Positions 3,265-55,053 of a stretch of 64,000 nt of DNA are shown here, piece after piece; positions within the stretch are counted from its first letter, which is position 1, and each line of letters begins with the position of its first letter. The DNA is from Bilabrum cf. latius (lineage: Eukaryota), in the NCBI GenBank assembly GCA_965178125.1, contig OZ237777.1, positions 62,001-126,000 on the forward strand. Reading direction: 5' to 3'. The notes under the pieces were generated by a model. It searched no databases. It saw nothing but the letters and a program-made list of their open reading frames with translations, and was not told where the DNA came from. The translations under genes and the position numbers were made by a program.

Positions 3265-4746
3265 ATGCCTCGCGTCTGGCCCCTAACGGCCGCTCAAATA
3301 GATGCTTCTTTAAACGAGGTTAAGCAGCTGGTTTAGAACAAATCAAACCTACGGCTACTGCCAAAATCATCTGCGAATGCGGTTCGCCAGTACGAAATGA
3401 TTACCGGCGAGAAGGTGAATGGCCGCCTAAGAACCCTCTATGACGCCTATGTGTCGCGTCAGCTCGATAGGTTAGTCATGGAGATTGACAAGGAGCACAT
3501 AGGATCCCAACTACGTAGTTGCTTTGGCCACGCCAAAGAGCCCGCCTGCCGAGTGCGCATGATTGAAGACAGGGCAATCAGCTGCCAAGTATGCGGTAGA
3601 AAGTACGGAATATTCGAATGGTCGAATCTGAAAAAGAGTGCACACTATCATATCGATGGCCGGCGAGTCCCAGCGAGGGGATTGGAACGACAGGAACCCC
3701 GCGTCCATGGTGCTGCTAGCGATGGGACTCAATATGTACCCGGACAGAAACGTAGTCGCTCCGAACAGACCAGCAATGAGGACTAGGCTGTTGAACAAGT
3801 CGCCAAGTACCCCCGGGTCGGGGGTGCAGGCAGCGAGTCTCCCAGATCGCCGGGACCGAGCTTGAAGACGAGGCTTACTGCGGTGGTGCATGCCGCCTTA
3901 CCGGTTCTGAAAAGGTGTCATCCGGACATGATACTAGTACGTCTCCTCAAGGAGTATCGCAAGGCAGATGATGTGATAGATGATGACCCTGTCGCTTTCG
4001 AGGGCAGGATGGGCAGCGCAAGCCGGCTGTTGATGCTGTTGGTTCCAGAGCTGGCCTCGCAGGACACTGCATGGACGCCGGACATGCGCGCACTGTTGCA
4101 TTGCTTCCAGTTTCTGTTTGCTGGGAACCAGGAGGAATGGGAAGATATCTTTGTCGCGAGCATTCGGAAATGCTTGCCTTCATCACCGAGACGCCGAGGC
4201 AGGGTCCGGGCCCGACAGCAGCACCAGCACCAGCACCAGCACCAGCACCAGCACCAGCACCAGCACCAGCACCAGCACCAGCACCAGCACCAGCACCAGC
4301 ACCAGCACCAGCACCAGCACCAGCACCAGCACCAGCACCAGCACCAGCACCAGCACCAGCACCAGCACCAGCACCAGCACCAGCACCAGCACCAGCACCA
4401 GCACCAGCACCAGCACCAGCACCAGCACCAGTACCAGCCCCAGCACCAGTACCAGCACCAGCACCAGCACCAGCACCAGCACCAGCACCAGCACCAGCAC
4501 CAGCACCAGCACCAGCACCAGCACCAGCACCAGCACCAGCACCAGCACCAGCACCAGCACCAGCACCAGCACCAGCACCAGCACCAGCACCAGCACCAGC
4601 ACCAGCACCAGCACCAGCAGTGGCACCGACAGCGGCAGCAGCAGCCCCGAGTCTCTGGCAGACAAGCCGGTAGGGCCGCAGAGCCCGTCCGGGCAGTCGC
4701 CCCAGCGGCCGGCAACGGGAGTGAGGGATCCTGCAAGAGAGCATGA
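3265..4746 (+). CDS. Hypothetical Cys/His (zinc-finger-like) protein with a (Gln-His)n tract; continuous only if TAG is read as sense
   Basis: Track ORFs 3397-3786 and 3862-4746 are in the same frame. Starting at ATG 3265, the only internal stops are TAG 3334 and TAG 3784, and the frame ends at TGA 4744-4746. The motif SCQVCGRKYGIFEWSNLKKSAHYH is homologous to TCVCGR*WSLMEWSNMYKCMLNH at ~54105-54175. Confidence 0.55.
4219..4620 (+). repeat. (CAGCAC)n hexanucleotide microsatellite, about 66 units
   Basis: Near-perfect array. Variants are CAGTAC (4432, 4450) and one CAGCCC. Confidence 0.98.
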
Positions 4747-5668
4747 GCTCTGAGCAACGTGCTGACCGGGCCAGCTCGGCTCGTGGATCCATCGTCGTTG
4801 GCGCGATGCGGCTGCTGAACGCAGGCCTGGGCCCGGCGATGCCATATTGGGCCGGGGGGCATTGACGGCACCGCGCTACAGGTCACTATTATCCGATGGA
4901 CCTGCAGGATGGATGCCCCTTTCAGCTGCATGAGGCGGTGGTGGTCGACGATGCACCCGCTCAAGGAGTTGGCCTACACGACGGGTGAAGCTGAGCTAGC
5001 TCAACTGGCTGTGGGACCTGCAAACCGCTCTCTGGAAGACATACAATGGCAAAGAGCCGGCGATGTGGACAAGTACCAGAATCGTAAGTAGATGGGCGAT
5101 GCCGATCCCATGCCCCGGGCCTTCACGGGGTCAATCGAGAACAGGAGGATGTCAAAGCATGACCGAGTCGCTGTCGCGTATCATCTATCTGGACTGGGGC
5201 TACGTGCGGGATAGGCAGTAGTGCAAGCTTGCAGAGATCTGCGGGGTGGAAGAGCTGGACATGCACGGCCCAAGTCCACCATCCCCGACGGAGGCAGGGC
5301 AGCCATCTACCTGAGGCGCGACATGGGTGAGTACCACGGGTACTCTGTGGAAGAAGGCCGTGGCTCACGGCAACAAGCACACCTAGGTGCAGGGCGAATT
5401 GGGAATGCTTTTTAGCACGGGAAGCGGTGAGAGCCTTGAGAACCAGGTGCCCGCACTGGACAGGCCAGCGGGCTCGAGGTGGACGTGAGGGTGGCTGACT
5501 TTCTCAGCGACTGAACCGATGGGCCGGTGTACATTACGCGGTACACACCGGGCAATATCAAGGCTGACGTCTCGGATCAGTAGCACATTTGGTAGGACCA
5601 TCGCCGAGGTTCGCGTGTGCCGGCCCATGCCGGGCCCTAGCCCAGATTCCTAGATTCCTATCTGAGGG

Positions 5669-5824
5669 GCTAATTTTGGTCAAAATGACAAATTTAGGCA
5701 CATATAATAAATAATCTATTAATAATTAAGTTAATTTGCGCAATTAAAGGTCCCTACGCAAGTCTTGATACACCTATTTGGAAACCTCAATTCTGGCTTT
5801 TACAATCCTAGATCGTACAGTGTT
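5669..5824 (+). repeat. AT-rich block homologous (inverted) to 57018-57174; probable 3'/terminal region of a large degraded element
   Basis: gctaattttggtcaaaatgacaaatttaggcacatataataaataatctattaataattaagttaatttgcgcaatta aligns with the reverse complement gctaaatttggtcaatactataaatttagacatatatactgaataatttattattaatttagttagttggcgcaatta. Both continue to gatcgtacWgtgtt. Confidence 0.75.
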
Positions 5825-6532
5825 AAACCTTTAGACTTGTATAATATCAATGCTTAATTATGGTTCACCCATCAAACACCACAAATGGCCCTATTCCATC
5901 CTTAAATAGATACAGAGCCACTTACACATAGTTGATACTGGTAGAGTGTCACGTTGTGTGAAGGCCTTGTGTGCTACTTGTGTGCAGACACCGCGGGCTC
6001 GTTGCCTCTACGCTTCATGCGTCCTCCTCCGTGTCCAACCACATACGCCATCGCCCTCAGAGGATTGCTACATTCGTATACATTGCATGATGCACCAGTA
6101 CCAAGTATTGCGGCTGCCCACGTCCCGCAATAGGCCGGATACCACAGTTAGCCAGGTACTTCCAAGCCATGCAGCCTCGACCTTGGCCAATGCTGATGTT
6201 GCACAGCGAGGCGTGTACGCGTTCATCCAGCCCTCCATGAAGGCGCAACACACGTAATGCTGGTGCTCTATCCTTGTACTACGTCTGCAACACGTACACA
6301 GACGCTGCGCGCTGTCTGCTACATGCGCTACGTGGTACCTGCAAGCCATGCAGCCTCGACCTTGGCCAATGCTGATGTTGCACAGCGAGGCGTGTACGCG
6401 TTCATCCAGCCGTCCATGAAGGCGCAACACACGTAATGCTGGTGCTCTATCCTTGCACTACGTCTGCAACACGTACACAGACGCTGCGCGCTGTCTGCTA
6501 CATGCGCTACGTGGTACTTCCAAACCATGCAG

Positions 6533-7054: not shown

Positions 7055-10000
7055 TGGCCAATGCTGATGTTGCACAGCGAGGCGTGTACGCGTTCATCCA
7101 GCCGTCCATGAAGGCGCAACACACGTAATGCTGGTGCTCTATCCTTGTACTACGTCTGCAACACGTACACAGACGCTGCGCGCTGTCTGCTACATGCGCT
7201 ACGTGGTACTTCCAAACCATGCAGCCTCGACCTTGGCCAATGCAGATGTTGCACAGCGAGGCGTGTACGCGTTCATCCAGCCGTCCATGAAGGCGCAACA
7301 CACGTAATGCTGGTGCTCTATCCTTGCAATACGTCTGCAACACGTACACAGACGCTGCGCGCTGTCTGCTACATGCGCTACGTGGTACTTCCAAACCATG
7401 CAGCCTCGACCTTGGCCAATGCAGATGTTGCACAGCGAGGCGTGTACGCGTTCATCCAGCCGTCCATGAAGGCGCAACACACGTAATGCTGGTGCTCTAT
7501 CCTTGTACTACGTCTGCAACACGTACACAGACGCTGCGCGCTGTCTGCTACATGCGCAACGTGGTACCTGCAAGCCATGCAGCCTCGACCTTGGCCAATG
7601 CTGATGTTGCACAGCGAGGCGTGTACGCGTTCATCCAGCCGTCCATGAAGGCGCAACACACGTAATGCTGGTGCTCTATCCTTGCAATACGTCTGCAACA
7701 CGTACACAGACGCTGCGCGCTGTCTGCTACATGCGCTACGTGGTACTTCCAAACCATGCAGCCTCGACCTTGGCCAATGCAGATGTTGCACAGCGAGGCG
7801 TGTACGCGTTCATCCAGCCCTCCATGAAGGCGAAACACACGTAATGCTGGTGCTCTATCCTTGCAATACGTCTGCAACACGTACACAGACGCTGCGCGCT
7901 GTCTGCTACATGCGTAACGTGGTACCTGCAAGCCATGCAGCCTCGACCTTGGCCAATGCTGATGTTGCACAGCGAGGCGTGTACGCGTTCATCCAGCCCT
8001 CCATGAAGGCGCAACACACGTAATGCTGGTGCTCTATCCTTGCAATACGTCTGCAACACGTACACAGACGCTGCGCGCTGTCTGCTACATGCGCTACGTG
8101 GTACTTCCAAACCATGCAGCCTCGACCTTGGCCAATGCTGATGTTGCACAGCGAGGCGTGTACGCGTTCATCCAGCCCTCCATGAAGGCGCAACACACGT
8201 AATGCTGGTGCTCTATCCTTGCAATACGTCTGCAACACGTACACAGACGCTGCGCGCTGTCTGCTACATGCGCTACGTGGTACTTCCAAACCATGCAGCC
8301 TCGACCTTGGCCAATGCTGATGTTGCACAGCGAGGCGTGTACGCGTTCATCCAGCCCTCCATGAAGGCGCAACACACGTAATGCTGGTGCTCTATCCTTG
8401 CAATACGTCTGCAACACGTACACAGACGCTGCGCGCTGTCTGCTACATGCGCAACGTGGTACCTGCAAGCCATGCAGCCTCGACCTTGGCCAATGCAGAT
8501 GTTGCACAGCGAGGCGTGTACGCGTTCATCCAGCCCTCCATGAAGGCGCAACACACGTAATGCTGGTGCTCTATCCTTGCAATACGTCTGCAACACGTAC
8601 ACAGACGCTGCGCGCTGTCTGCTACATGCGCTACGTGGTACTTCCAAACCATGCAGCCTCGACCTTGGCCAATGCTGATGTTGCACAGCGAGGCGTGTAC
8701 GCGTTCATCCAGCCGTCCATGAAGGCGCAACACACGTAATGCTGGTGCTCTATCCTTGCAATACGTCTGCAACACGTACACAGACGCTGCGCGCTGTCCG
8801 CTACATGCGCTACGTGGTACCTGCAAGCCATGCAGCCTCGACCTTGGCCAATGCAGATGTTGCACAGCGAGGCGTGTACGCGTTCATCCAGCCCTCCATG
8901 AAGGCGCAACACACGTAATGCTGGTGCTCTATCCTTGCAATACGTCTGCAACACGTACACAGACGCTGCGCGCTGTCCGCTACATGCGCTACGTGGTACC
9001 TGCAAGCCATGCAGCCTCGACCTTGGCCAATGCAGATGTTGCACAGCGAGGCGTGTACGCGTTCATCCAGCCCTCCATGAAGGCGCAACACACGTAATGC
9101 TGGTGCTCTATCCTTGCAATACGTCTGCAACACGTACACAGACGCTGCGCGCTGTCTGCTACATGCGCAACGTGGTACCTGCAAGCCATGCAGCCTCGAC
9201 CTTGGCCAATGCTGATGTTGCACAGCGAGGCGTGTACGCGTTCATCCAGCCCTCCATGAAGGCGCAACACACGTAATGCTGGTGCTCTATCCTTGCAATA
9301 CGTCTGCAACACGTACACAGACGCTGCGCGCTGTCCGCTACATGCGCAACGTGGTACCTGCAAGCCATGCAGCCTCGACCTTGGCCAATGCAGATGTTGC
9401 ACAGCGAGGCGTGTACGCGTTCATCCAGCCCTCCATGAAGGCGCAACACACGTAATGCTGGTGCTCTATCCTTGCAATACGTCTGCAACACGTACACAGA
9501 CGCTGCGCGCTGTCCGCTACATGCGCTACGTGGTACCTGCAAGCCATGCAGCCTCGACCTTGGCCAATGCTGATGTTGCACAGCGAGGCGTGTACGCGTT
9601 CATCCAGCCCTCCATGAAGGCGCAACACACGTAATGCTGGTGCTCTATCCTTGCACTACGTCTGCAACACGTACACAGACGCTGCGCGCTGTCTGCTACA
9701 TGCGCAACGTGGTACCTGCAAGCCATGCAGCCTCGACCTTGGCCAATGCTGATGTTGCACAGCGAGGCGTGTACGCGTTCATCCAGCCCTCCATGAAGGC
9801 GCAACACACGTAATGCTGGTGCTCTATCCTTGCAATACGTCTGCAACACGTACACAGACGCTGCGCGCTGTCTGCTACATGCGCTACGTGGTACTTCCAA
9901 ACCATGCAGCCTCGACCTTGGCCAATGCAGATGTTGCACAGCGAGGCGTGTACGCGTTCATCCAGCCCTCCATGAAGGCGCAACACACGTAATGCTGGTG

Positions 10001-10251
10001 CTCTATCCTTGCAATACGTCTGCAACACGTACACAGACGCTGCGCGCTGTCTGCTACATGCGCAACGTGGTACCTGCAAGCCATGCAGCCTCGACCTTGG
10101 CCAATGCTGATGTTGCACAGCGAGGCGTGTACGCGTTCATCCAGCCGTCCATGAAGGCGCAACACACGTAATGCTGGTGCTCTATCCTTGCAATACGTCT
10201 GCAACACGTACACAGACGCTGCGCGCTGTCCGCTACATGCGCTACGTGGTA

Positions 10252-12061
10252 CGGTAAGACTTGGGATCAGGCCCGACTGATTCCGAGTCGTTCGGGTCCT
10301 GGTTTGTGCTCCCGAGGCACTTCCCTTGAGGCAAGTGCTCGAGTGGAGGCTGAGACGCAACACGCAGCGCCACAGATATAAAGATCTGGGCACTGGAGTT
10401 CTGTTGAAAGGTGGTGCCCACGAATTCTCTGGAATTTACCGACTGTTGGCCACCGACGGGTCCGAAATGCCAACACTCACGCTGCAACTCAACGCCATGC
10501 GTACTCGCCTGCTTAGCGTATCACTCTTAGTGCGAATGTTGGTTTGAACTATTAACGAACTATTGGAGGGCGTACAAAGTGCGGCCGGTAGCGAGTTCCC
10601 GGGGTATCTGAAGTTAACCGCAAAATTTTGACCCGGCTCGTGCCGCATCCGTGACGGCCTGGGAGCCGCAGCCGCAGCCAAGCTTACCTTTTGTGGATGC
10701 AAGGAAGCACTAGCGGAACCGGAATGCGCGTATAAGTCATGCGAGACCGCGGACCAGGCACAGCAACGCCGGCGAGATCATTTTCTCGTCAGCATGGCTC
10801 CCACTCTAGTTCTCTTCACAGAAATGAGCTCGAAACCACGGCCACAGGCGGTAGCAGCCATGGTCGACTCTTTCCCTAAGCTAGGGCGGTCCGCCGAAGG
10901 CGACGAGTCGCCACTGATGGTGCGGGTGTTCCGGTGGACCATGCTCGACGGCACGCCAACAGGTGCGCAGCTAGCGTGCGACCTCCTCCAGATGACGGCG
11001 ATGCGGCACCTCATCAGCCTGCAGAACGCGGCAATAACTGGGGCAGTGGATACGGCGGCAGCCACCGGGTGGCCGAGGCGAACGGCACCCACGGAGTAGG
11101 CGCCCGGCGGGCCTGACGTGTCGAGCACGGACGCCGTAGAGCTGGAGGACATCAAACCGTAGTGCTGGAGGAGGCCCAGCTCGTGAAGTATCTGGTGGCT
11201 GCCAGCCTCGAGCTCTCCGCATCGTGGAACTTCTCAATCGCGCAGGAGAAGGCGGAGGCAGCGGCGCCCGGTGCAGGAAGTGGCGCAAGGAGAGTGCTCC
11301 GACGTCGCCGCGCCACTACTCCGGTAGCGGCAGCAGTGGGGTACCCTCGGGCGCTGAGGTTGTAGCTGGATCAAGCAGGAGAGCGTGACCTACACCCGTG
11401 CGCCAGATTCCGCTGCTGAACGTGCCAAGGCGACGCTGGCTGCCAGACGTGGGGCCAGCCGCATCGCCGCGACACAAGTACTTGGCCGGGGCGGGGCCTC
11501 AGGTAGTGCTTCTTCGTCATCGTCTTCCAGCTCCGTTCCTAGAAGGGATATAGCCGACAGTAGGGGGAAAGATGGGCCTGGACTCACACTCCTACCGTCG
11601 AGCGGGTCCCACGCTGGGGTGGCTGTGCGGCACTTACGGGCCCCGCCCAGCTCTGCTTTGCGTACAACCGATCAACTCTCGGGAGACCTATTGGCTGCCT
11701 CTCCTTCAGCCCCGGATGTGCGTCTGCCCTCTTATAGGGCAGATCTGCCGGGGCCTCGGGGGTTGACGCCGTAGGCTCTATTCAACGAGGGCTCGCCGGT
11801 GGGAAACAGGCAGAGGTATCTGATGGGGATGACGACGAGGGGGCAGCAGACTCTGCGGCTGGTGAGAGCCGAGCACATCGTGGTGTAGACTCTGCGGCTG
11901 GTGAGTGCAGCGCCGGTGTGGGGCTGCCGAGGCGGGCAGCCCTTGGGTGAGGCTGGTGCGGGCCAGCTCACCCCGTCCCCATCGCCGTCTTTCTCAGCAA
12001 ATACCAACCGGCAGGTTGGACAGAGATTAATTATGCCATCGTATTATAACAAATCGGGACC
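10252..12061 (+). mobile_element. Internally deleted, non-autonomous Ngaro-type (YR retrotransposon) copy: A repeat, ORF1 region, B repeat
   Basis: 10252-11914 appears identical to 21549-23211, then jumps to repeat B (11915-12061). The flanks rejoin as the satellite sequence gtggta^cttccaagcc with no TSD. Confidence 0.88.
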
Positions 12062-14959: not shown

Positions 14960-17900
14960 GGCGGCCAGGACAAGCAGCAGTCTCACTGCGAGCCCAGCCT
15001 GCCTCTTGGTCATCCAAGCCGGCGCAAGCCAGAGACACGTGCACAGCATTGTGTCCCTCACATCACCAAGGCAAGCACCAGCGAGACTCAGGCGGCCAGG
15101 ACAAGCAGCAGTCTCACTGCGAGCCCAGCCTGCCTCTTGGTCATCCAAGCCGGCGCAAGCCAGAGACACGTGCACAGCATTGTGTCCCATATCACCAAGG
15201 CAAGCACCAGCGAGACTCAGGCGGCCAGGACAAGCAGCAGTCTCACTGCGAGCCCAGCCTGCCTCTTGGTCATCCAAGCCGGCGCAAGCCAGAGACACGT
15301 GCACAGCATTGTGTCCCATATCACCAAGGCAAGCACCAGCGAGACTCAGGCGGCCAGGACAAGCAGCAGTCTCACTGCGAGCCCAGCCTGCCTCTTGGTC
15401 ATCCAAGCCGGCGCAAGCCAGAGACACGTGCACAGCATTGTGTCCCATATCACCAAGGCAAGCACCAGCGAGACTCAGGCGGCCAGGACAAGCAGCAGTC
15501 TCACTGCGAGCCCAGCCTGCCTCTTGGTCGTCCAAGCCGGCGCAAGCCAGAGACACGTGCACAGCATTGTGTCCCCAATTCACCAAGGCAAGCACCAGCG
15601 AGACTCAGGCGGTCAGGACAAGCAGCAGTCTCACTGCGAGCCCAGCCTGCCTCTTGGTCATCCAAGTCGGCGCAAGCCAGAGACACGTGCACAGCATTGT
15701 GTCCCCAATTCACCAAGGCAAGCACCAGCGAGACTCAGGCGGTCAGGACAAGCAGCAGTCTCACTGCGAGCCCAGCCTGCCTCTTGGTCATCCAAGCCGG
15801 CGCAAGCCAGAGACACGTGCACAGCATTGTGTCCCTCACATCACCAAGGCAAGCACCAGCGAGACTCAGGCGGCCAGGACAAGCAGCGGTCTCACTGCGA
15901 GCCCAGCTTGCCTCTTGGTCATCCAAGCCGGCGCAAGCCAGAGACACGTGCACAGCATTGTGTCCCTCACATCACCAAGGCAAGCACCAGCGAGACTCAG
16001 GCGGCCAGGACAAGCAGCAGTCTCACTGCGAGCCCAGCCTGCCTCTTGGTCCTCCAAGCCGGCGCAAGCCAGAGACACGTGCACAGCATTGTGTCCCTCA
16101 CATCACCAAGGCAAGCATCAGCGAGACTCAGGCGGTCAGGACAAGCAGCAGTCTCACTGCGAGCCCAGCCTGCCTCTTGGTCATCCAAGCCGGCGCAAGC
16201 CAGAGACACGTGCACAGCATTGTGTCCCTCACATCACCAAGGCAAGCACCAGCGAGACTCAGGCGGCCAGGACAAGCAGCAGTCTCACTGCGAGCCCAGC
16301 CTGCCTCTTGGTCCTCCAAGCCGGCGCAAGCCAGAGACACGTGCACAGCATTGTGTCCCTCACATCACCAAGGCAAGCACCAGCGAGACTCAGGCGGCCA
16401 GGACAAGCAGCAGTCTCACTGCGAGCCCAGCCTGCCTCTTGGTCATCCAAGCCGGCGCAAGCCAGAGACACGTGCACAGCATTGTGTCCCTCACATCACC
16501 AAGGCAAGCACCAGCGAGACTCAGGCGGCCAGGACAAGCAGCAGTCTCACTGCGAGCCCAGCCTGCCTCGTGGTCATCCAAGCCGGCGCAAGCCAGAGAC
16601 ACGTGCACAGCAGTGTGACCCTAATATCACCAAGGCAAGCACCAGCGAGACTCGGGCGGCCAGGACAAGCAGCAGTCTCACTGCGAGCCCAGCCTGCCTC
16701 TTGGTCATCCAAGCCAGCGCAAGCCAGAGACACGTGTACAGCATTGTGTCCCATATCACCAAGGCAAGCACCAGCGAGACTCAGGCGGCCAGGACAAGCA
16801 GCAGTCTCACTGCGAGCCCAGCCTGCCTCTTGGTCCTCCAAGCCGGCGCAAGCCAGAGACACGTGCACAGTATTGTGTCCCATATCACCAAGGCAAGCAC
16901 CAGCGAGACTCAGGCGGCCAGGACAAGCAGCAGTCTCACTGCGAGCCCAGCCTGCCTCTTGGTCATCCAAGCCGGCGCAAGCCAGAGACACGTGTACAGC
17001 ATTGTGTCCCTCACATCACCAAGGCAAGCACCAGCGAGACTCAGGCGGCCAGGACAAGCAGCAGTCTCACTGCGAGCCCAGCCTGCCTCTTGGTCATCCA
17101 AGCCGGCGCAAGCCAGAGACACGTGCACAGTATTGTGTCCCATATCACCAAGGCAAGCACCAGCGAGACTCAGGCGGCCAGGACAAGCAGCAGTCTCACT
17201 GCGAGCCCAGCCTGCCTCTTGGTCATCCAAGCCGGCGCAAGCCAGAGACACGTGTACAGCATTGTGTCCCATATCACCAAGGCAAGCACCAGCGAGACTC
17301 AGGCGGCCAGGACAAGCAGCAGTCTCACTGCGAGCCCAGCCTGCCTCTTGGTCCTCCAAGCCGGCGCAAGTCAGAGACACGTGCACAGCATTGTGTCCCA
17401 TATCACCAAGGCAAGCACCAGCGAGACTCAGGCGGCCAGGACAAGCAGCAGTCTCACTGCGAGCCCAGCCTGCCTCTTGGTCGTCCAAGCCGGCGCAAGC
17501 CAGAGACACGTGCACAGCATTGTGACCATAATATACCAAGGCAAGCACCAGCGAGACTCGGGCGGCCAGGACAAGCAGCAGTCTCACTGCGAGCCCAGCC
17601 TGCCTCTTGGTCCTCCAAGCCGGCGCAAGCCAGAGACACGTGCACAGCATTGTGTCCCTCACATCACCAAGGCAAGCATCAGCGAGACTCAGGCGGTCAG
17701 GACAAGCAGCAGTCTCACTGCGAGCCCAGCCTGCCTCTTGGTCATCCAAGCCAGCGCAAGCCAGAGACACGTGCACAGCATTGTGTCCCATATCACCAAG
17801 GCAAGCACCAGCGAGACTCAGGCGGTCAGGACAAGCAGCGGTCTCACTGCGAGCCCAGCCTGCCTCTTGGTCATCCAAGCCGGCGCAAGCCAGAGACACG

Positions 17901-26290: not shown

Positions 26291-26529
26291 AGGGATCAGA
26301 GTGCATTATGGGTATACTTGCTCTTGCTGGGGCTTGATGGCGCATGTGCGCGCCTGCCAGTGGCCGCCTTGCTGTCAAAGTCAGCCAGGCGAGCCGGGGT
26401 GGGCTGCTTCGCGTCGGCTGCCACAGAGTTGGGCTTGCTTGGTCTCGATGGCGCTTGGGTGCGCCTGCCATACGCTGCAGTGCGGTTGATGTCAGCCTGG
26501 CGAGCCGGCGCGAGTGGCTTCGCGTCGTC

Positions 26530-40744: not shown

Positions 40745-41482
40745 ACTTGAGTCGTGTCTCACAGGGCCCAGCGAAGTTGACTGAGCACGATGCATCCGGG
40801 CTGTCTGGGTCAGGCGTGATGACCTCGAGATCCAGACACTCCTGCCCACCGATGAGCAGCGACATCCTGTCTGGGTTTGTTCCCTCGAGCCCCTGCACCT
40901 TGGCCAGGCAGACGTCCTCCCCTCCAGCGGTGTCCAGTGCGGGCCAGTCGGGCTGTTCCTGCAGGGCGTCAAAGAAGGGCACGGGCCGGTTGAACGTAGC
41001 TGTGTTGGAGACTCGCTGGTCCAAACGCACCTGCACCTGCACGTCTGCTGCCCCAGTAGGGTCTACGATCTCGAATTCGATCTCTTCGTTCGTCCATCGC
41101 ATGATCCTGGGTGCAAGCATGTCCAAGTCTGCGCTAATCCCCACGGCCTGCTCATCCACCAGCAGATTCGCATCCCCCCGCGTCCCTGCACGAACACCCG
41201 AAGCCACACGTTGCCCATCGTTGAGTTGCGGTCGGGTGAGGTGCGGGTGATGGCGGGCGGATCGTACACCAGCAACCCCGCCCCTGCAGCGGGGAAAACA
41301 CCGGCGCTCCAGAACCTACCGTGGATTGCAGCCTCACGATCACCTCCCGGTTCTCGCCATACCCCGGAGGCGGGTCGAACTCGAACAGAGCCATCACTCC
41401 GTCCCCGCGCAGCTCGCCCCCACCGTTGGTGACAGGCACCTCGGCAAGCTGTCTGAGCTTCTCCTGGGCGGACTGGGGCAGC

Positions 41483-41550
41483 GCCCACCCGCACATTATG
41501 TCTGGTGCCCACCCGCGCATTATGTCTGGTGCCCACCCGCGCATTATGTC
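41483..41550. repeat. 24-bp tandem repeat, about 3 copies
   Basis: Unit gcccacccgcgcattatgtctggt. Confidence 0.9.
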
Positions 41551-44531
41551 GGGTCAGTGCCGACTGGGGCCGCGGATCCGCGGTTGTACACGTAAAGTGT
41601 TGCGTTAGCGCGGGCAGCGAATCCAGGATTCGACTCTTCCACTGATAGGCTCCCGCTCCTCCAGTGGAGGCACCCTGCGGCGTAAGCTCCGCTTCCGTCA
41701 CAGCAGGAGCTGCTTACGATGTCATAGGCTTTGGATTCTACCTTTGAAGACTAGCCTTCGACCGATACGATCCATACCTGCGGCCGACCCCCGGCTCGGT
41801 CCTGTACTCGATAGCAGTGTGGTTGGGCACTTCACAGCCAGTGGCCACGCTCTCGTAGCCAGTGGTTCCGTACCTGACGGAGTCCAGCGGATCAGTCCTG
41901 GGCCCACAGTTGGTACCCCGCAGCAGCACGCGGTCCCCACACTCCGTAGAGGCATCCACAGCCCCTGACCCGGGGGTCTCAGAGATCTAGTTGCCGATCA
42001 GCAGGTACTATCGGAAATCTGCGCCTGCACCCCCCATGGTCTTGCACTCTGTTGGCCAGCACCACATCGCAGTCCGCTGCGTGGAACGGAGGAGGCAGGT
42101 CGTCCTCACTCAGCTGCATGTGGCCCTCCTGTCTTGCCATGTGTGCGGCATCCAGTAGCAGTATTACTCGTCCACTTGGCGCTTCGTGTACACTGCCTGA
42201 GCCACGGTTGGTCCCAAGGGCCGGCAGTGCCTGCCCTCGATGATGACCAGCTAGTTGCCCTCCGTGTGTACGAGCGATGAGCCTGGTCCTGCATAGCTCG
42301 TGATCACCGGCGGGTGGTAGTTGGTCATCGCCTCGAGCACGGGACTCTCTTGCCCGTCGATCTCCACCTTCCACACAAGCTCATCTCCGATGCCAGGCGC
42401 TGTTCTGCATGTGATCCTGGTGCTAGCAGAGGCCACGAAGCAGTCAGTTGCCTCAAAAGCACTGAACCATGTCGGGTCAGCCTTTGCAGCCCACTTAGAC
42501 CAGTAGGTCACCTTGGGCACAGGCATGGGTAGGAAACCCAAGGGCTGGTCCGCTGCCAGCATGCGAGGCACATCGGCCAGTGCGGACCCGCACAACTCCT
42601 GCACGCCTTCCAGCAGCACTGTCCTTGGCCCGAGCTGGTCGCCCTCTAGGATGATGATCGCGCAGCCATGTCTTGGCATCCGCCGTTCCCTGGCCCCCGG
42701 CCAACCGCACCTGTGGCGCGCGGTATGACGTGGTGTCATCCGAGGTCACTCCCGAGTCCTGCCCGCCCACCATGACGACCCACGTGTGATCCTTGCCCAT
42801 TCCTGGCTGCGCCTGGCACAGCACTCCCTTGTGCGGGTTGGATGGCAAGCTGTCAAACTGCGTGCAGTAGCGCTCACTGTCTCCATCAGGCCCGTAGTAG
42901 GCACGCACACCTGCGCAAGCAAGAGCCTGTGGACCAGGTTTCAGGAAACGCCCCTTGATGTGAATGGCGTCACCCCCATGTGTGGATAGGAAGGTATTCG
43001 TCATTGAGGTGTCCACGTCCATAGTCATCTACTCCATTGCCAGCATCAGTTTCTCGCATGCCTCTGTGGCTTTCTTTCTAGCGCTCTGCACCTCTGCAGC
43101 AGGCAGTACCACCACCGGCTCGCTCGTTCTCACACGAGAGCAAGGCCAAGTTCTGCTGCGATCGGAAGGGGCTGGTCCATTAAAATGAGACCCACAAGCA
43201 CAGTGAAGTCCAGACAAACGATCCCAATGGATGACTCGCACTGGGGTTCCAATGGCGCCGACGTTGGTTCCAGTCAGCTGGATATTGCTTCCCTCAAGGG
43301 TGTCAATGTCAGAGGCTCGTGCTAACGCAGATTATGTGGGGCGCTTATACCTCGCGTAGATCCCGCCCGCAATCTGCGAGAAGCCGTTCACTGTGATGGT
43401 CCACTCGAGCGCCTCGCCGTACCCTGGCTGCACCTCGCACTCAAGCAAGGTAGGGGCTGTCAGGATCGTGCATTCGCTTTCCGACACGTTGTAACCGCGA
43501 TATGGGTGCATGCCAGCAGCTGAAGAATAGCCATAGTACGCAGACACGACGTTGGGGCTGGCCCCGCCCCTCCATACTACGCCCATCCACTCGCATTGGA
43601 AGCGCACCTGGGTTTCCCCTGTCGTTGGAAAGGGTACCCAGTCCACCGTAGTGATGATGATGTCGTTGGTGTCCCGGATGGTCACAGCAACAGTGGACTA
43701 CACCTGCATCAGCCCGTCCGACACCTCCACCACCAGGTTAAGCTAGCCTGCGCCTCGTAGTCGAGCGGCTTGGCCACAACAACTTCGAAGCCCTGCGTCT
43801 GTGCCACGCTGATATCTCGGGTGTCGGCCGATACAGCGAAGTGCCCGTCAGGATCCCCACCTGTGATCGCAAATGCCAGAATGTCCTCCGTGTCGGGGTC
43901 GCTGCAAGGGACGCAAGCAATGGCAGTGCCCGGCTGGATGCCCTCGATGATGTCTACAGAGCCATCTTGCGTGGCAGGGATCTCGTTCACGTCATTCGCC
44001 CGGATGGTTGCGGTGAAGTTGGCCTTCAAGCCGTTGTTGTCCTCCACCGCGATCACCAGCTCGATGCGGCCGTCTGTGACTTTCAAATAGTTAAGACAGG
44101 ACGCATCCGTCAATTGTGTGCCGTAGGTACGGATGCACGTTACGAAGTGATTTAGATAGATATATTAGGAGAGATTGTGTAGTATTGGTCGCCGAGCGCA
44201 GATGTGAGGCTCTCACTTGTTCGGAATTTCGGTGGCACCTGTGTTCTACAGCTGTGCCCCGATATTCTCAGTAATAATTGTCATTATGTGGCAATACACA
44301 CTGTGACATCGTGACTTCCATGAAAGCTTCTTTTACATTCTCAACCACCTGAATAAAACCAGACATGGCATCGAACACAGAGCCGTCGCCATGTGCCTGA
44401 ATCCACCGGTTGATTTGTCCACCACCGGAGACACACAACTAATTCTCCATGTCTTACCATATCTTCCTTACGGGAGGTTGCAGTGGGTGGTCTCGTTGAA
44501 GCAAAGCAAAGTGTCTCCAAGATAGTTGGAA

Positions 44532-45400
44532 TTAGCTGGACGCCCGTGCTTGGGCCACCGCCTCAAGCAGCACCGCCTGTGGCGCGCGCTGCAGCTCAAG
44601 GTGCGTCCAACCAATATCGATTGCTGGCAGCCCATCGGCTTCTCGCCGGATGTAGGTGTTCATGCTCTTAGTGGATGCCCACCGTCCAAGACGCTGCACA
44701 ATGCCGTGCTCGATGCCCAGCCGCACCATTGTGCTGGTGATGCGGAAACTGTGCCCATGCCACCCACTTGCATCGTCATGGCGGCTTGCACAGCTCCGCA
44801 CCAGACGTACGACGTGCAACGGCGTACCGCGTCGTGCGGCGACCGTTCGATGCGATCTCCGGGAACAACAACACCTGACTGTTCTGGCAGGCGTTGTGCA
44901 GGTGGCGTGGCGAGGTGACCGGGATTCCCGCTGCGGTCAGCCTCGTCATGACGTGCCGGACGAAATGGTGTACGGGGCAGCATGGGCTACCCTGTACCTC
45001 TCCTTTGACCACCTACACAGGGGATCGGGTTGCGATTGCCACCGTGGCGGGCCCACCCGCCTTGGTGAACCGCAGGTGCAGGGAGCAGCTGATCACCTTG
45101 TTGTCCTCGATTGCCCAGGATACATGCTTGAGGCGATGCGGATCAGAGGCGGCCCGTGCCTCTCCCGTGGCCTCGCCCAGGCGCATGGTCCCCCCAAAGG
45201 CCAGTGCACCGGCCAACTAGGCCGCACTTTTGCCGGGGGTGGATGGCTGGAATTTGAAGAAGTGCCGCACTGCTGACATCGGGATGGGCGTGCGGTGCAG
45301 ACTTGCAAGTGTTTGTTTGCCGTGTAATGCCTGGCCACTGCATGGCCAAAGTCACCAAGTCCTTTCACTACGACTGCTCCTAATCGATTGTACAAGGACG
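44532..45400 (-). pseudogene. Tyrosine recombinase of a DIRS/Ngaro/Crypton-type element, frameshifted
   Basis: ALAFGGTMRLGEA (R), LHLRFTK (K), CCPV, GHSFRI (HxxR), IVQRLGRWASTKSMNTYIR (W...Y). In-frame TAG at 45013. Confidence 0.85.
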
Positions 45401-46990: not shown

Positions 46991-49900
46991 GAGTGTTCAT
47001 GCCAGTTACAGCCCAGCGGGTCAAGCTCGCAGCGGTCCACTAACTGGGTTTGCCGCACCCGGGTCCCTTCCTGCAGGGGAATTGCACGACCGGCAGCAGC
47101 GCGCAGAGGCGGACGGACGGACAGATGGATGGATGGATGGATGGATGGATGGATGGACGGACGGACAGATGGACAGATGGACAGATGGATGGATGAATGG
47201 ATGGATGGATGGATGGATGGATGGATGGATGGATGGATGGATGGATGGATGCGGGGCCAGGACCGGCGCGTGCAAACTGAAAGGATGGGGCCAAGGTGGC
47301 AATGCAGGGAGCAAAGCACACGGTCTCTAGGGCGTCCGTGCCTGTGACTTCGAGGGGGGGACCCCGTGCTCGTGCACGGGTTTGCGTGTGCACGAATGTG
47401 GCCTTCACGGGCGTGGAGGCCGGTGAGGTACGCAGATGCGTTCCTGCACGGGCGTGCCTGCCACAGCAACCCGTGCAGGGGCACGAGCAGCAGCGGTCCG
47501 ATCCTTGCAGGCCGGGATGCGCTTCGCACTTCGCCGGCGGCACCAGTTTTGCACTGTGCTGATTGAATGATGGGTACTGTTGCTTCCTCCTTCTTTCCTG
47601 CTGCTGCATTTGGCCGCATACTGTCGGGCGTGTCTGACAAGGCTGTGACGGGCACGGTGACTGTGCGGTCTGGCGATGCGGCATCCGCGTCATCGGGCGC
47701 GGTGAGCCAGGCGTCGGGCGCGTCGACGAACGCGGTGTCTGGCGTGGTGACTGTGGACTCGGGCGCGGCGGTGTCGGCTGCATCGGGCTAGGGTTTTAGG
47801 TAGCGTGCTGCCTGGGTCTTCGTCGCTGGACTCGACGGGCGCAATACTGTGGGCTCTGGCACGTCCGACGTGGATGGGAAGGGTGCGGTGACGAGCCAGT
47901 GGGTGCGGGCGACGGCCTGGCAGAGGACGTGCAGTGAAGGCAGGACATCCGCCGCAGCAGCTGCCGCTGCCTCAAACCAACCGCTCCGGCAACTGGAACG
48001 GCCTGGCACCGGCGGTTCTGTGCTTGTTGTGGTCTTGCAGTGGCATTTGGACCTTTCGAATTGAATTTGGATATGCGGATAAGGTGGGACGGTGGCCAAT
48101 CGGCAATCGGCGCTGACGTCCCCGCGCCGGCGCCGCAGCGGAACCTCGTGAATGAGCCAAAAATTTGGCTCGGCCACGGGGACACACTTGCCTCAGCCGA
48201 ATCAATGTATATTTAAACTGGTTCTGCCGCAATTGCATGGGGTCGTGCCCGCGCGGAGTGTTCGGCTCGGGGGCCCGAGCACCTGCGCCCGAGCCGGAGG
48301 TTGGGCTCGTGCAGAGGCACCCTCCGCCAAACCCTAGGGTTTTCCTTTGTTTGCAGCTAGGGCACAGGTAACTTGTAATTAGCTATATATTTTACACCAC
48401 TTTTGCACTGGGCTGATTGAATGATGGGTACTGTTGCTTCCTCCTTCTTTCCTCAAGCAACTCTGGATTCAAGTCTCACGGGCAAGTCGTCTTGCCCACG
48501 GTTGCCTGCCCTGTGCGTACACTTCGTCGTCCTCAGCTTATTTGATTGATCAAACTGATACATACGTTCGTCCATGATCATGGTGCGATTGGACCACCTG
48601 GTCCGACCATTGGCTCTCAAAGGATGGGATTTGAGCGTGTCTTTGATGAGCAGGCGTCATTCACCAGTGAGTGTTCATGCCAGTTACAGCCCAGCGGGTC
48701 AAGCTCGCAGCGGTCCACTAACTGGGTTTGCCGCACCCGGGTCCCTTCCTGCAGGGGAATTGCACGACCGGCAGCAGCGCGCAGAGGCGGACGGACGGAC
48801 AGATGGATGGATGGATGGATGGATGGATGGATGGACAGATGGATGGATGGATGGATGGATGGATGGATGGATGGATGGATGGATGGATGGATGGATGGAT
48901 GGATGGATGCGGGGCCAGGACCGGCGCGTGCAAACTGAAAGGATGGGGCCAAGGTGGCAATGCAGGGAGCAAAGCACACGGTCTCTAGGGCGTCCGTGCC
49001 TGTGACTTCGAGGGGGGGACCCCGTGCTCGTGCACGGGTTTGCGTGTGCACGAATGTGGCCTTCACGGGCGTGGAGGCCGGTGAGGTACGCAGATGCGTT
49101 CCTGCACGGGCGTGCCCGCCACAGCAACCCGTGCAGGGGCACGAGCAGGAGCGGTCCGATCCTTGCAGGCCGGGATGCGCTTCGCACTTCGCCGGCGGCA
49201 CCAGTTTTGCACTGTGCTGATTGAATGATGGGTACTGTTGCTTCCTCCTTCTTTCCTGCTGCTGCATTTGGCCGCATACTGTCGGGCGTGTCTGACAAGG
49301 CTGTGACGGGCACGGTGACTGTGCGGTCTGGCGATGCGGCATCCGCGTCATCGGGCGCGGTGAGCCAGGCGTCGGGCGCGTCGACGAACGCGGTGTCTGG
49401 CGTGGTGACTGTGGACTCGGGCGCGGCGGTGTCGGCTGCATCGGGCTAGGGTTTTAGGTAGCGTGCTGCCTGGGTCTTCGTCGCTGGACTCGACGGGCGC
49501 AATACTGTGGGCTCTGGCACGTCCGACGTGGATGGGAAGGGTGCGGTGACGAGCCAGTGGGTGCGGGCGACGGCCTGGCAGAGGACGTGCAGTGAAGGCA
49601 GGACATCCGCCGCAGCAGCTGCCGCTGCCTCAAACCAACCGCTCCGGCAACTGGAACGGCCTGGCACCGGCGGTTCTGTGCTTGTTGTGGTCTTGCAGTG
49701 GCATTTGGACCTTTCGAATTGAATTTGGATATGCGGATAAGGTGGGACGGTGGCCAATCGGCAATCGGCGCTGACGTCCCCGCGCCGGCGCCGCAGCGGA
49801 ACCTCGTGAATGAGCCAAAAATTTGGCTCGGCCACGGGGACACACTTGCCTCAGCCGAATCAATGTATATTTAAACTGGTTCTGCCGCAATTGCATGGGG

Positions 49901-52398
49901 TCGTGCCCGCGCGGAGTGTTCGGCTCGGGGGCCCGAGCACCTGCGCCCGAGCCGGAGGTTGGGCTCGTGCAGAGGCACCCTCCGCCAAACCCTAGGGTTT
50001 TCCTTTGTTTGCAGCTAGGGCACAGGTAACTTGTAATTAGCTATATATTTTACACCACTTTTGCACTGGGCTGATTGAATGATGGGTACTGTTGCTTCCT
50101 CCTTCTTTCCTCAAGCAACTCTGGATTCAAGTCTCACGGGCAAGTCGTCGTGCCCACGGTTGCCTGCCCTGTGCGTACACTTCGTCGTCCTCAGCTTATT
50201 TGATTGATCAAACTGATACATACGTTCGTCCATGATCATGGTGCGATTGGACCACCTGGTCCGACCATTGGCTCTCAAAGGATGGGATTTGAGCGTGTCT
50301 TTGATGAGCAGGCGTCATTCACCAGTGAGTGTTCATGCCAGTTACAGCCCAGCGGGTCAAGCTCGCAGCGGTCCACTAACTGGGTTTGCCGCACCCGGGT
50401 CCCTTCCTGCAGGGGAATTGCACGACCGGCAGCAGCGCGCAGAGGCGGACGGACGGACAGATGGACAGATGGATGGATGGATGGATGGATGGATGGATGG
50501 ATGGATGGATGGATGGATGGATGGATGGATGGATGGATGCGGGGCCAGGACCGGCGCGTGCAAACTGAAAGGATGGGGCCAAGGTGGCAATGCAGGGAGC
50601 AAAGCACACGGTCTCTAGGGCGTCCGTGCCTGTGACTTCGAGGGGGGGACCCCGTGCTCGTGCACGGGTTTGCGTGTGCACGAATGTGGCCTTCACGGGC
50701 GTGGAGGCCGGTGAGGTTCGCAGATGCGTTCCTGCACGGGCGTGCCTGCCACAGCAACCCGTGCAGGGGCACGAGCAGGAGCGGTCCGATCCTTGCAGGC
50801 CGGGATGCGCTTCGCACTTCGCCGGCGGCACCAGTTTTGCACTGTGCTGATTGAATGATGGGTACTGTTGCTTCCTCCTTCTTTCCTGCTGCTGCATTTG
50901 GCCGCATACTGTCGGGCGTGTCTGACAAGGCTGTGACGGGCACGGTGACTGTGCGGTCTGGCGATGCGGCATCCGCGTCATCGGGCGCGGTGAGCCAGGC
51001 GTCGGGCGCGTCGACGAACGCGGTGTCTGGCGTGGTGACTGTGGACTCGGGCGCGGCGGTGTCGGCTGCATCGGGCTAGGGTTTTAGGTAGCGTGCTGCC
51101 TGCGTCTTCGTCGCTGGACTCGACGGGCGCAATACTGTGGGCTCTGGCACGTCCGACGTGGATGGGAAGGGTGCGGTGACGAGCCAGTGGGTGCGGGCGA
51201 CGGCCTGGCAGAGGACGTGCAGTGAAGGCAGGACATCCGCCGCAGCAGCTGCCGCTGCCTCAAACCAACCGCTCCGGCAACTGGAACGGCCTGGCACCGG
51301 CGGTTCTGTGCTTGTTGTGGTCTTGCAGTGGCATTTGGACCTTTCGAATTGAATTTGGATATGCGGATAAGGTGGGACGGTGGCCAATCGGCAATCGGCG
51401 CTGACGTCCCCGCGCCGGCGCCGCAGCGGAACCTCGTGAATGAGCCAAAAATTTGGCTCGGCCACGGGGACACACTTGCCTCAGCCGAATCAATGTATAT
51501 TTAAACTGGTTCTGCCGCAATTGCATGGGGTCGTGCCCGCGCGGAGTGTTCGGCTCGGGGGCCCGAGCACCTGCGCCCGAGCCGGAGGTTGGGCTCGTGC
51601 AGAGGCACCCTCCGCCAAACCCTAGGGTTTTCCTTTGTTTGCAGCTAGGGCACAGGTAACTTGTAATTAGCTATATATTTTACACCACTTTTGCACTGGG
51701 CTGATTGAATGATGGGTACTGTTGCTTCCTCCTTCTTTCCTCAAGCAACTCTGGATTCAAGTCTCACGGGCAAGTCGTCGTGCCCACGGTTGCCTGCCCT
51801 GTGCGTACACTTCGTCGTCCTCAGCTTATTTGATTGATCAAACTGATACATACGTTCGTCCATGATCATGGTGCGATTGGACCACCTGGTCCGACCATTG
51901 GCTCTCAAAGGATGGGATTTGAGCGTGTCTTTGATGAGCAGGCGTCATTCACCAGTGAGTGTTCATGCCAGTTACAGCCCAGCGGGTCAAGCTCGCAGCG
52001 GTCCACTAACTGGGTTTGCCGCACCCGGGTCCCTTCCTGCAGGGGAATTGCACGACCGGCAGCAGCGCGCAGAGGCGGACGGACGGACAGATGGACAGAT
52101 GGATGGATGGATGGATGGATGGATGGATGGATGGATGGATGGATGGATGGATGGATGGATGGATGGATGGATGGATGGATGGATGGATGGATGGATGGAT
52201 GCGGGGCCAGGACCGGCGCGTGCAAACTGAAAGGATGGGGCCAAGGTGGCAATGCAGGGAGCAAAGCACACGGTCTCTAGGGCGTCCGTGCCTGTGACTT
52301 CGAGGGGGGGACCCCGTGCTCGTGCACGGGTTTGCGTGTGCACGAATGTGGCCTTCACGGGCGTGGAGGCCGGTGAGGTACGCAGATGCGTTCCTGGG
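46991..52398. repeat. ~1.63-1.68-kb tandem repeat, about 3.3 units, each with a variable (GGAT)n microsatellite
   Basis: gagtgttcatgccagttacag occurs at 46991, 48669, 50327 and 51957 (periods 1678, 1658, 1630). Length differences map to GGAT tracts near 47125, 48800, 50460 and 52090. Confidence 0.96.
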
Positions 52399-52584: not shown

Positions 52585-52750
52585 CCAGGTGGGTGAGTAG
52601 CGGCTCAGTGGCGGAGATGATTGGTGGAGTTATCGGGTTGGCACGGCGGACTGGAAGGGGTGGGCACAGACCGGGCAGGAGTAGGGGTGGTTGTGTGGGT
52701 TCAAATGAATCGGATCACTGGATCGGATCATCCGACCACATGCGGATGTG
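52585..52750 (+). repeat. Diverged ~165-bp direct repeat, second copy at ~55924-56090
   Basis: Both copies contain atgattggtRgagtYatc.ggttgRcacggcggaYtggaag...ggatcggatcaYccgaccRcatgcRgatg. Confidence 0.75.
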
Positions 52751-53678
52751 CATGAGGATTGAGGGGATATGATTGACGAGGATTAGTACTAGTTAATTCA
52801 ACTCGGCGTCACACACTTTATTAGCATTAACCATGTATAGCAACTTGTAGAACTCTACAAACGGTCCACTAACGTCAATCCCTTCTAGACCCCACTGTAG
52901 ACGATGGGTAGTAATAGTGGCACTAATGCGGCGAGAAACGCCACGAGCGGCTGCCAAAACTGGACAAGCCAGTACTGGCTTTGCGCGCTGCGAACCCAGC
53001 GGCAGCGCTACTAGCTGAAGGGGCCGCGAGGCATGTCTGCCGTCTACGACAGGTACCCGATGTAGGAAGCTGCCTCGATGGTATCGGAAGCAATCTACGT
53101 GGCGATGTTGGGTATCGGCTCGCGATCCGAACAGGCGGAGGCGCTGGAGGCGTGTCGTAAATGGCATGCATGATGGAGACTTTGGCCCAAGGCTCAAGAG
53201 GTGAGGTGGGAGTGCGGGAGCCGACCGCCGCTATCGGGCACTCCCGGGAGCACTCAGGCCAGGTGGGGAGTCCTGGGGGTATGGCAGGAGATGCGCAGGA
53301 CCACTAGCTGGGCGGCTAGAGGGTCACACGGCTGCCACACGGAGTTGGTGAGAAGTGAAGGGGCGGGAGTAGTAGGCTGGGATGGTGCGTCTGGTTGGGG
53401 GGGAGACTGGGCCGAATGAGCCCAACGACGAACGGTACCGCAAGGTGTAGTCAACTGTAGCGCAGCCAGTGACTAGGCCTTTCATTCTAGCCGTCTGAAC
53501 TTTACTACACAGAATGGCGGTGGTTTTCCACCTCCACCCATCATCCCATCAGTTGTCTCAGCGGCTGGGACCGTGCGGGCCCGCTACTGTCACGATACGG
53601 ACACAGTGGGCGTTTGGAACATAAGAACTTGAGAGGTGTTCTGTGATAATAAAACTTACTTTGCTCCTCTGTTTTTAG

Positions 53679-55053
53679 GTTAGAGTGGCACGAGTGGTCC
53701 GGCGTCACGGCGGCGTCAAAGCGTGCTCGGCTCGGATCCATGTTGCGTGCACTTCCAGGCGATGAGCATTCAAAAAAGCATGTCGCTGCATCAGAGTGTA
53801 GAGAGCATCCCACGTGGAAATTATTCATGTCGCTGGATTCCTTTATTAGCCGAAATTAGATAAGTATTGAACGGCCTAGTAGAAAGCATATGCTGCTCCT
53901 TCTCAGATTTGAGAAAGCACATAGCGGGCTCCCGCTCTTGGTTGTTGGGAAAATTGACCAATTTTTGCAACAGTAGCTCGCAAAACTACGGGATAAGCTC
54001 ATTGCTGTTACATAGAGCAATCCTGCGTTTGTTTCCTGGACAAATATTGCGTTCGCCTGCCTTGCAAAGTAGCAAGAAGCCACCATCGTTAAAGCGAGAC
54101 GATTAACCTGCGTTTGTGGTCGATAGTGGAGCCTAATGGAATGGAGTAACATGTATAAATGCATGCTGAACCATTTTGAATCTTGTTCGTGTGGTAAGGT
54201 CTGTAGAAATTAGGATGCGCACGAATTTGCCTGAGATCACACGTCGTTGTGTACAGCACCTAAGAAATACCTTTTATCGATGAGTCTCGCAGATGCCGGC
54301 AATGTAGTTATGACTGCTAAGTCTAAGGCTGCCGGACATGTGGTGGGAACAAGCACTGTACCTGTAATACTGGCAGGACGAAAGAGGAAGCGAACCACCT
54401 CTCATCCGCAGTTGTGTGTGAGAGTCGACCAGCAGCAACTTGAAGTCGAAGATTGGGGCGATGCAGCTGCTGCTGCAACCGGCCACACTTCCTCCCCTGA
54501 AGTAGGATCGTCATCAACAGCGGCGGAATCCAAGCAGGCTTGTAAGCGAGCAAGGACACAGCCGGAGCTCCGCCAGCACCATTCTGCGGGCGGAGCTCCG
54601 GCAGGGTCAAGCGGGGGTCCGGGTCTGAGCTCCGGGTCAGGGGCAAGCGAGGGTCTGGTAGGGCATCGACCCCACGATAGGAAACGGGTGAGCAACCTGA
54701 TCTAGAAGCAGCGGCATAAAACGCAGTAGAGTGGTTCAGTAGAGTGGGAGATGCACTCTAGCCCCCAGTCATCATAGCTACCGGTGGAGCTACGCCTGAT
54801 GTATGCCGCTGAAGCAAAATCTGAGTTTGTGGTGCACCTCCGGGACATGTATGGCATTCCCGTCGACATGATGGTATCTGATCACTCGTTCGCTCCCATC
54901 TCCAGTGCCGGCTAGACCGAAGATGGGTGGGGCGGCGAAGCGGGGGCTGGATCGCCATGTCAGAATGACCATACTGAAGCGCAAGGCAATGCAACCAGCG
55001 GATGCAGGACCCCCAAATCCAGATCCATGGACCGCTTCCGGCCCCCCAGCTGA
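53679..55053 (+). CDS. Hypothetical Cys/His protein homologous to 3265-4746; intron 54194-54256; nine exonic in-frame TAG; 5' exon not identified
   Basis: One frame from a pyrimidine-rich acceptor (53678) to TGA 55051-55053. TAG at 53857, 53974, 54013, 54070, 54124, 54703, 54727, 54775 and 54913. The only internal TGA (54232) lies inside a 63-nt GTAAGG...ACAG intron that preserves the frame. Confidence 0.6.

Follow-up and report, generated by a model that had tools for sequence, protein, structure and literature searches.

Does TAG still end translation in the genome from which contig OZ237777.1 (assembly GCA_965178125.1, Bilabrum cf. latius) derives? The question is raised by a stretch of 64,000 nucleotides (nt) of this contig (forward-strand positions 62,001 to 126,000; hereafter the window, in whose own numbering all positions are given), in which five reading frames run through internal TAG triplets and end at TGA. 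The nuclear genetic code seldom changes. From this one 64-kb window, public protein collections and four public sequencing runs, we consider it likely that UAG is a sense codon, most probably for glutamine (Gln), that UGA is the terminator and that UAA is probably also a stop.

A preliminary description made from the sequence alone had counted 21 internal TAG triplets in the five frames, and a recount gives the same figure frame by frame (2 + 6 + 9 + 2 + 2 = 21). Two lie in the frame at 3265-4746 (at 3334 and 3784), six in the frame at 37899-39177 (at 38044, 38221, 38248, 38395, 38464 and 39157), nine in the frame at 53679-55053 (at 53857, 53974, 54013, 54070, 54124, 54703, 54727, 54775 and 54913), and two in each of two pieces of long interspersed nuclear elements (LINEs) on the minus strand, LINE A (codons starting at 34464 and 34455) and LINE B (codons starting at 36710 and 35783). 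The accompanying statement that no frame has an exonic TAA or TGA and that every frame ends at TGA also holds, once introns at 37938-38034 and 54194-54256 are removed: in-frame TAA and TGA then number zero, and the terminal codon is TGA in 5/5 frames and UAA or TAG in 0/5.

We compared the number of each stop triplet in frame with the mean of the other two frames over the same stretches, using Fisher p values. Over all five frames (2311 codons), TAG occurs 21 times against an expectation of 24 (p = 0.7), whereas TAA occurs 0 times against 15 (p = 6.5e-6) and TGA 0 times against 55.5 (p = 2.5e-20). The comparison was repeated on a validated set of three frames whose limits are independent of stop codons, namely LINE A and LINE B, delimited by homology, and the gene at 37899-39177 (the 38-kb gene), delimited by spliced contigs. 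In these frames (1382 codons) TAG is unavoided (10 vs 12.5, p = 0.59), whereas TAA (0 vs 6.5, p = 0.0067) and TGA (0 vs 36, p = 2e-13) are wholly avoided. A window-wide version of the test on TGA-delimited frames was uninformative, being dominated by chance open reading frames (ORFs) of GC-rich DNA.

The 38-kb gene lies on the plus strand and is Zn2Cys6/dioxygenase-like. Its exon 1 (37899-37937, encoding MKRKSCSICRRMK; a second in-frame ATG lies upstream at 37890) is followed by a 97-nt intron (37938-38034, GTGAGT..GCAG) and by exon 2 (38035-39177), which carries the second half of the Zn2Cys6 cluster, a PhyH-like domain and a low-complexity tail, and which contains the six TAG triplets and the TGA at 39175-39177. 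The junction from 37937 to 38035, at which 97 nt bounded by GT and AG are skipped, is present in contigs of two of the four public runs, X5 (side 190) and X7 (side 180); these contigs cover 37748-37937 and 37758-37937, respectively, and resume at 38035, and a transcript-like contig reaches 39334. The junction is judged from these contigs themselves, with uncovered stretches of X5 and X7 and depth ratios between runs set aside. Over 1490 and 1262 nt the joined contigs show 0 differences from the window, and record 4 of the DNA run X1 continues unspliced through the intron (37696-39818). A spliced product of the 38-kb gene thus existed at some time, whether or not the joined form is a retrocopy. 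RNA editing of UAG to CAG is ruled out, since the joined contigs equal the DNA with 0 differences. The gene looks single-copy, being represented by one X1 contig with 0 differences.

Read with TAG as sense, the spliced ORF spans 393 codons from the first ATG to the TGA at 39175-39177 and occupies about 80% of the 1490-nt contig; a ribosome using the standard code would stop at codon 17, having read 16 codons. In frame there are 6 TAG, 0 TAA and 0 TGA, versus 10, 7 and 19 in the other two frames together. The spliced frame starts MKRKSCSICRRMK|KKC(TAG)FVGNQDCLSCQKRGLTC, giving an N-terminus of the form C-x2-C-x6-C-x7-C-x2-C-x6-C with the TAG inside the x7 loop. Zn2Cys6 clusters follow the spacing rule C-x2-C-x6-C-x5-12-C-x2-C-x6-8-C, and the cysteines of the spliced ORF fall within it; the earlier claim that one TAG sits in a correctly spaced cluster is upheld on the spliced frame.

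An exhaustive HMMER search with exon 2 (1.84 billion representatives) returned 59 proteins at E<=1e-3, of which the best matches were P0008 (E 2.8e-40, 40% identity, query 34-266) and P0009 (E 6.2e-25, 55%). A profile built from a 25-member family matches solved Fe(II)/2-oxoglutarate dioxygenases (AndA at 2.2e-9 and AusE at 1e-6, then PrhA and SptF), and 2/10 scanned homologues, P0011 and P0057, match the Pfam family PhyH (PF05721). All ten near-invariant columns are kept in the window protein (R127, S172, Q179, H182, D184, F243, H249, G251, R260 and H262), including an intact HxD...H iron triad (H182, D184 and H249), and the homologue alignment stays collinear downstream of four of the TAGs, with no frameshift across 34-266. 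As judged from these alignments, the protein has a predicted PhyH-like Fe(II)/2-oxoglutarate dioxygenase domain and looks real and functional.

The three closest homologues extend across four of the TAG columns, giving 12 cells that can be scored. Columns X76 and X148 read Q/Q/Q, column X125 reads G/Q/C and column X67 reads R/K/Q, so that for this one gene Gln stands opposite TAG in 8/12 cells and leucine (Leu) in 0/12. The homologue columns point to UAG = Gln. P0009, a protein of 112 amino acids (aa) that lies inside a 1883-nt contig and is 54-55% identical, ends just before the column of the near-invariant Gln179. In a word-based protein search with the 38-kb protein among 'shorter' lengths it was the only match, and a metagenome scan with P0009 found no relative.

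The LINE pieces contribute a different kind of evidence, namely a stop triplet shared by copies that have diverged. LINE B (35667-37370, minus strand, its frame listed to 37448) is the 3' part of an ORF2 downstream of the reverse transcriptase (RT) domain and ends at the TGA at 35667-35669; LINE A (34135-35472, minus strand, recognised by tblastn, with homology beginning at about 35403) is the 3' part of a related LINE family and ends at the TGA at 34135-34137. The two align at 33% identity over 422 aa (E 3e-65) with the same aligned TGA end and with no TAG position in common, exactly as had been proposed at the outset. From residue 191 onward, but not before it, the protein P0007, which contains an RVT_1 domain, is 98% identical to LINE B; the cluster of P0007 holds four further proteins from other contigs. 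Both P0007 and P0070 end at ..HYIRTAYMCQ, the exact site of the window TAG at 36710. P0007, P0070 and the window copy differ from one another at several residues, and because such diverged copies share the site, the stop would be older than their split. Past the TAG at 36710 the window frame is open for 346 more codons and is still homologous to LINE A. Two more database proteins, P0067 and P0069, break off after ..EWVR, at a point where P0007 and P0070 carry Gln. A metagenome scan with LINE B found no relative.

The two LINE pieces are tails of different families arranged tail to head (34135-37370, minus strand). No reverse transcriptase was found upstream of them in any frame; the sister copies P0007 and P0070 bear RVT_1 or RT motifs, and the window copies are without that part. 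In the DNA run X1, the summed contig depth over 34135-37370 is far above that of the neighbouring gene; both LINE families therefore seem to be present in many genomic copies.

The remaining two frames lie on the plus strand and share a CxVCGRx6EWSN motif. The frame at 3265-4746 (the 3-kb frame) carries two TAGs and ends at TGA, but its last third is the (CAGCAC)67 microsatellite at 4219-4619, which is in frame with the ORF and is read as (QH)n over about 130 residues; the coding status of this (Gln-His)n part is doubtful. The 54-kb frame is modelled as an exon at 53679-54193 with five TAGs, preceded by a ..TTTTTAG acceptor, a predicted 63-nt intron at 54194-54256 (GTAAGG..ACAG) and a second exon at 54257-55053 with four TAGs and the TGA at 55051-55053. 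Both the exon model and the intron were read from the sequence only, and the intron removes the sole in-frame TGA (54232). BLASTP aligned the 3-kb frame with its 54-kb paralogue over the 34-aa CxVCGR..EWSN motif only (35%, E 6e-6). It left unaligned the stretch in which the preliminary description had set a TAG opposite Gln (YVSRQLDRL / FLQQ*LAKL), and this match was not reproduced. The 3-kb frame gave no match in a word-based search of proteins.

Between the 38-kb gene and the 54-kb frame lies a cadherin/TIG-like ORF (42498-44098, minus strand) that contains in-frame TAGs, one in-frame TAA (43332-43334) and, in the window allele, a shift of frame by 1 nt near 43738. Pfam gives it only a weak match to Cadherin (E 6.5e-4; 20.5 bits against a cut-off of 28.8). 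The DNA run X1 holds a variant with an extra C behind 43738 (depth 99.9 of 332) that restores one frame, reading ..PLDYEAQASLDLVVEVSDG.. continuously. The TAA sits between two TIG-like stretches, with no plausible intron around it.

The same observations could be explained under the standard code if the frames were young pseudogenes and dead transposon copies, their TAGs having arisen by nonsense mutation, for the most part through CAG>TAG or TGG>TAG transitions and perhaps under a CpA>TpA mutator resembling repeat-induced point mutation (RIP), with too little time elapsed for TGA, TAA and frameshifts to appear. Satellites and duplications crowd the region, and both LINE copies have lost their 5' parts. 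The nearby cadherin/TIG-like ORF combines a frameshift with a TAA; decaying sequence does exist near the 38-kb gene. CAG is also far commoner than CAA, and CGA is rare, so that single transitions would yield mostly TAG (about 0.7 per new stop, an estimate from codon counts); moreover, CAG>TAG nonsense mutation predicts TAG opposite Gln, as observed, and by themselves the homologue columns do not tell a Gln codon from such a mutation. Yet in-frame TAG has already reached the out-of-frame level (21 vs 24) while TAA and TGA are untouched, and six stops in 393 codons would correspond to about 10% neutral divergence, at which the 38-kb gene nevertheless has no frameshift and keeps 10/10 near-invariant residues. 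That gene also has a spliced product, three diverged LINE B copies carry the same stop, and the first exon of the 54-kb frame has more TAG (5) than CAG (1). In fungi, RIP creates TAG from CAG or TGG in duplicated DNA, and it also creates TAA from CAA, lowers CpA and TpG and raises TpA. Here, by contrast, there is no TAA from CAA, CpA and TpG are kept, TpA is not raised and the 38-kb gene looks single-copy. None of the four expected traces of a CpA>TpA mutator (depleted CpA and TpG, TAA from CAA, Tyr codons from His codons, and C>T at CpA among repeat copies) is present. The ratio (CpA+TpG)/(ApC+GpT) is 1.34-1.56 in the frames, with a minimum of 1.09 over all 1-kb bins; window-wide, TpA is depleted (TpA/ApT 0.64) and CpA (1.44) and TpG (1.32) are over-represented; and 26 CAA codons survive, with 0 TAA against about 4 expected (P = 0.018). 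The 38-kb gene has 13 histidine (His) versus 2 tyrosine (Tyr) codons and keeps all three invariant His, which counts against such a mutator, as it should turn His into Tyr. When singleton changes were compared among repeat copies (the families at 1167-2211, 11330-11905 and 46991-52000 and their copies), C>T fell at CpG in 7/9 cases and at CpA in 1/9, and G>A followed T in 2/11; copies of the 179-bp satellite show the same substitution pattern as the larger repeat families. The predominance of CpG among the C>T sites suggests that the repeats are methylated and deaminated there. Neither the mutator that the preliminary description offered as its alternative nor the CAG>TAG mutation pressure that it thought might favour reassignment finds support, CpA and TpG being undepleted and C>T at CpA being 1/9. 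We regard decay under the standard code as unlikely.

A reading that is quite unlikely in our judgement is the code of NCBI table 6, in which both TAG and TAA (UAR) mean Gln, TGA is the sole stop and TAA would merely be rare in these frames. The five TGA ends, with none at TAA, fit it, as does the single in-frame TAA at 43332-43334 in the cadherin/TIG-like ORF, and no other nuclear variant comes near UAR = Gln in frequency, UAG and UAA having changed in coordination at least 13 times (PMC5304391). The ratio of TAA to TAG is, however, 0:21, though CAA makes up 16-26% of CAR codons (P of zero 0.025 over all frames and 0.047 over the validated ones); TAA is below the other-frame level in the validated frames (0 vs 6.5, p = 0.0067); and the sole in-frame TAA belongs to an ORF that is without transcript support and frameshifted in the window allele. 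Very improbable is an ambiguous TAG that stops translation at gene ends and is read through internally, by context or by a strong natural suppressor. Context-dependent termination codes are known, as in Condylostoma and karyorelicts (10.1101/2022.04.12.488043), and the present data are compatible with one, although nothing speaks specifically for it. Against it, 0/5 frames end at TAG, and the last TAG of the 38-kb gene (39157), only six codons upstream of the TGA at 39175, is not a stop despite its 3'-end position. Nor is there a common context in the base after TAG (A 9, C 5, T 4, G 3, counted with the second exon of the 54-kb frame mis-phased). Reading of TAG as pyrrolysine or selenocysteine was considered and dropped, given Gln in the homologues and 21 sites with no common context.

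Several points weigh against UAG as a sense codon or narrow its support. The scope is one very repeat-rich 64-kb window, in which no housekeeping gene and no eRF1 was found and ARAGORN detected 0 transfer RNA (tRNA) genes. A spliced product is known for one gene only, and the RNA nature of the runs concerned is a guess (X5 'probably DNA', X7 'RNA?'), for which reason the joined, intron-less form could be a retrocopy; no RNA holder is listed for 37400-45400. Pfam gave no match for the 38-kb window protein alone. LINE A and LINE B are 5'-truncated dead copies and by themselves weak evidence. The 3-kb and 54-kb frames were delimited as free of TAA and TGA, which is why they stand outside the validated set, and they have no homologues or Pfam families. 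The cadherin/TIG-like ORF, finally, is either a pseudogene or a sign that UAA is occasionally read. With these points in the balance, the initial proposal was retained in its first part, that UAG is a sense codon, most likely for Gln, and that UGA terminates, on the spliced product, the intact catalytic residues, the Gln columns and the shared LINE B stop. Its second part, that UAA is still a stop, was retained with more reserve: TAA is 0/10 in the validated frames (p about 0.03-0.05), an argument from absence that faces the one TAA at 43332-43334.

In the mechanism that we propose by analogy with Iotanema spirale and phyllopharyngean ciliates, UAG would be translated as a sense codon, most likely glutamine, by a tRNA-Gln with anticodon CUA or through efficient near-cognate reading, eRF1 would have lost its recognition of UAG, and UGA, and probably UAA likewise, would terminate translation. 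Iotanema and two ciliates already provide examples of this type of code. In the fornicate Iotanema spirale, UAG encodes Gln and UAA and UGA are stops (PMC5304391); there, as in our reading of the window, Gln is assigned to UAG alone and UAA is no sense codon, but UAA is the predominant terminator there, whereas here UGA stands at 5/5 ends. The Iotanema case also rests on a whole transcriptome, as opposed to five frames of one window, and our window differs from it in its 59% GC, its LINEs, its satellites and its 63-97-nt GT-AG introns. Among phyllopharyngean ciliates, Hartmannula sinica and Trochilia petrani use UAG for Gln (PMC11687900), likewise independently of UAA, but with UAA as the main terminator, whereas every end here is UGA. 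Table 6, reported for Amoeboaphelidium protococcarum, ulvophytes, hexamitin diplomonads, oxymonads and ciliates (PMC5304391), has UAG = Gln and UGA as terminator in common with the window, but UAA is also Gln there, whereas the frames here hold 0 TAA and 21 TAG. In the rhizarian exLh, UAG alone is likewise reassigned, but to Leu (PMC5304391), whereas Gln fills 8/12 homologue cells here and Leu none. In the literature, supplements not covered, Iotanema was the one eukaryote outside the ciliates that we found to use UAG = Gln; no GC-rich alga and no fungus-like organism came up.

As to the organism itself, a kinship with fungi is hinted at by the Zn2Cys6 gene and by GT-AG introns of 63-97 nt; Amoeboaphelidium, a Fungi-related parasite of algae, would suit the Zn2Cys6 gene, a link that we infer. 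With 59% GC, long satellites and LINE fragments, the window is presumably unlike a ciliate macronucleus.

Outside the frames discussed above, repeats make up most of the window, whose G+C of 59% comes with strong local skews. Satellites with units of 179 and 131 bp span 3-6.6 kb. The 179-bp satellite forms about 18 copies at 7055-10252 (97% matches), with two more copies at 6155-6532 and further interspersed copies at 11.9-12.3 kb. Arrays of the 131-bp satellite lie at 14960-21548 and 28126-32950 (about 51 and 37 copies, 95-96% matches); in them TAG and TAA triplets are nearly absent and there is a strong skew of A>T and C>G. Three tandem copies of a unit of about 1.6 kb (97-99% identical), with (GATG)27-28 microsatellites in them, occupy 46991-52396, and incomplete copies occur at 1167-2831, near the window's left end; the long open frames across this unit are probably due to chance. 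Minisatellites of 39 and 78 bp also occur. Two different 39-bp minisatellites lie at 25109-26301 and 62032-62613, the latter containing CTAGC, which explains why TAG/CTA triplets peak locally at 62-63 kb. Periodicity of third-position G+C (GC3) revealed no coding stretch with strong bias, and neither the six raw frames nor ten additional long ORFs matched a Pfam family. Pfam screens of 39.3-46.9 kb on both strands and of two plus-strand frames at 52.4-64 kb returned only the weak Cadherin match.

Reassignment of UAG without UAA was first documented in 2017 (PMC5304391), and a few ciliates followed in 2024 (PMC11687900). We hold it as a serious though tentative possibility that the window records an independent and hitherto undescribed switch of UAG, and of UAG only, to Gln, in a GC-rich, transposon- and satellite-rich eukaryote in which UGA is the working terminator and UAA is kept out of frames. 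If UAG is sense in this organism, gene callers that apply the standard code would cut its proteins at every TAG and its annotation would be wrong throughout; the database fragments P0007, P0009, P0067, P0069 and P0070 end at such sites. An independent reassignment would also mean a further decoupling of UAG from UAA, outside ciliates and metamonads, and a genome of ordinary appearance, GC-rich and bearing introns and LINEs, would become a new system in which to study how eRF1 and tRNA-Gln separate UAG from UAA.

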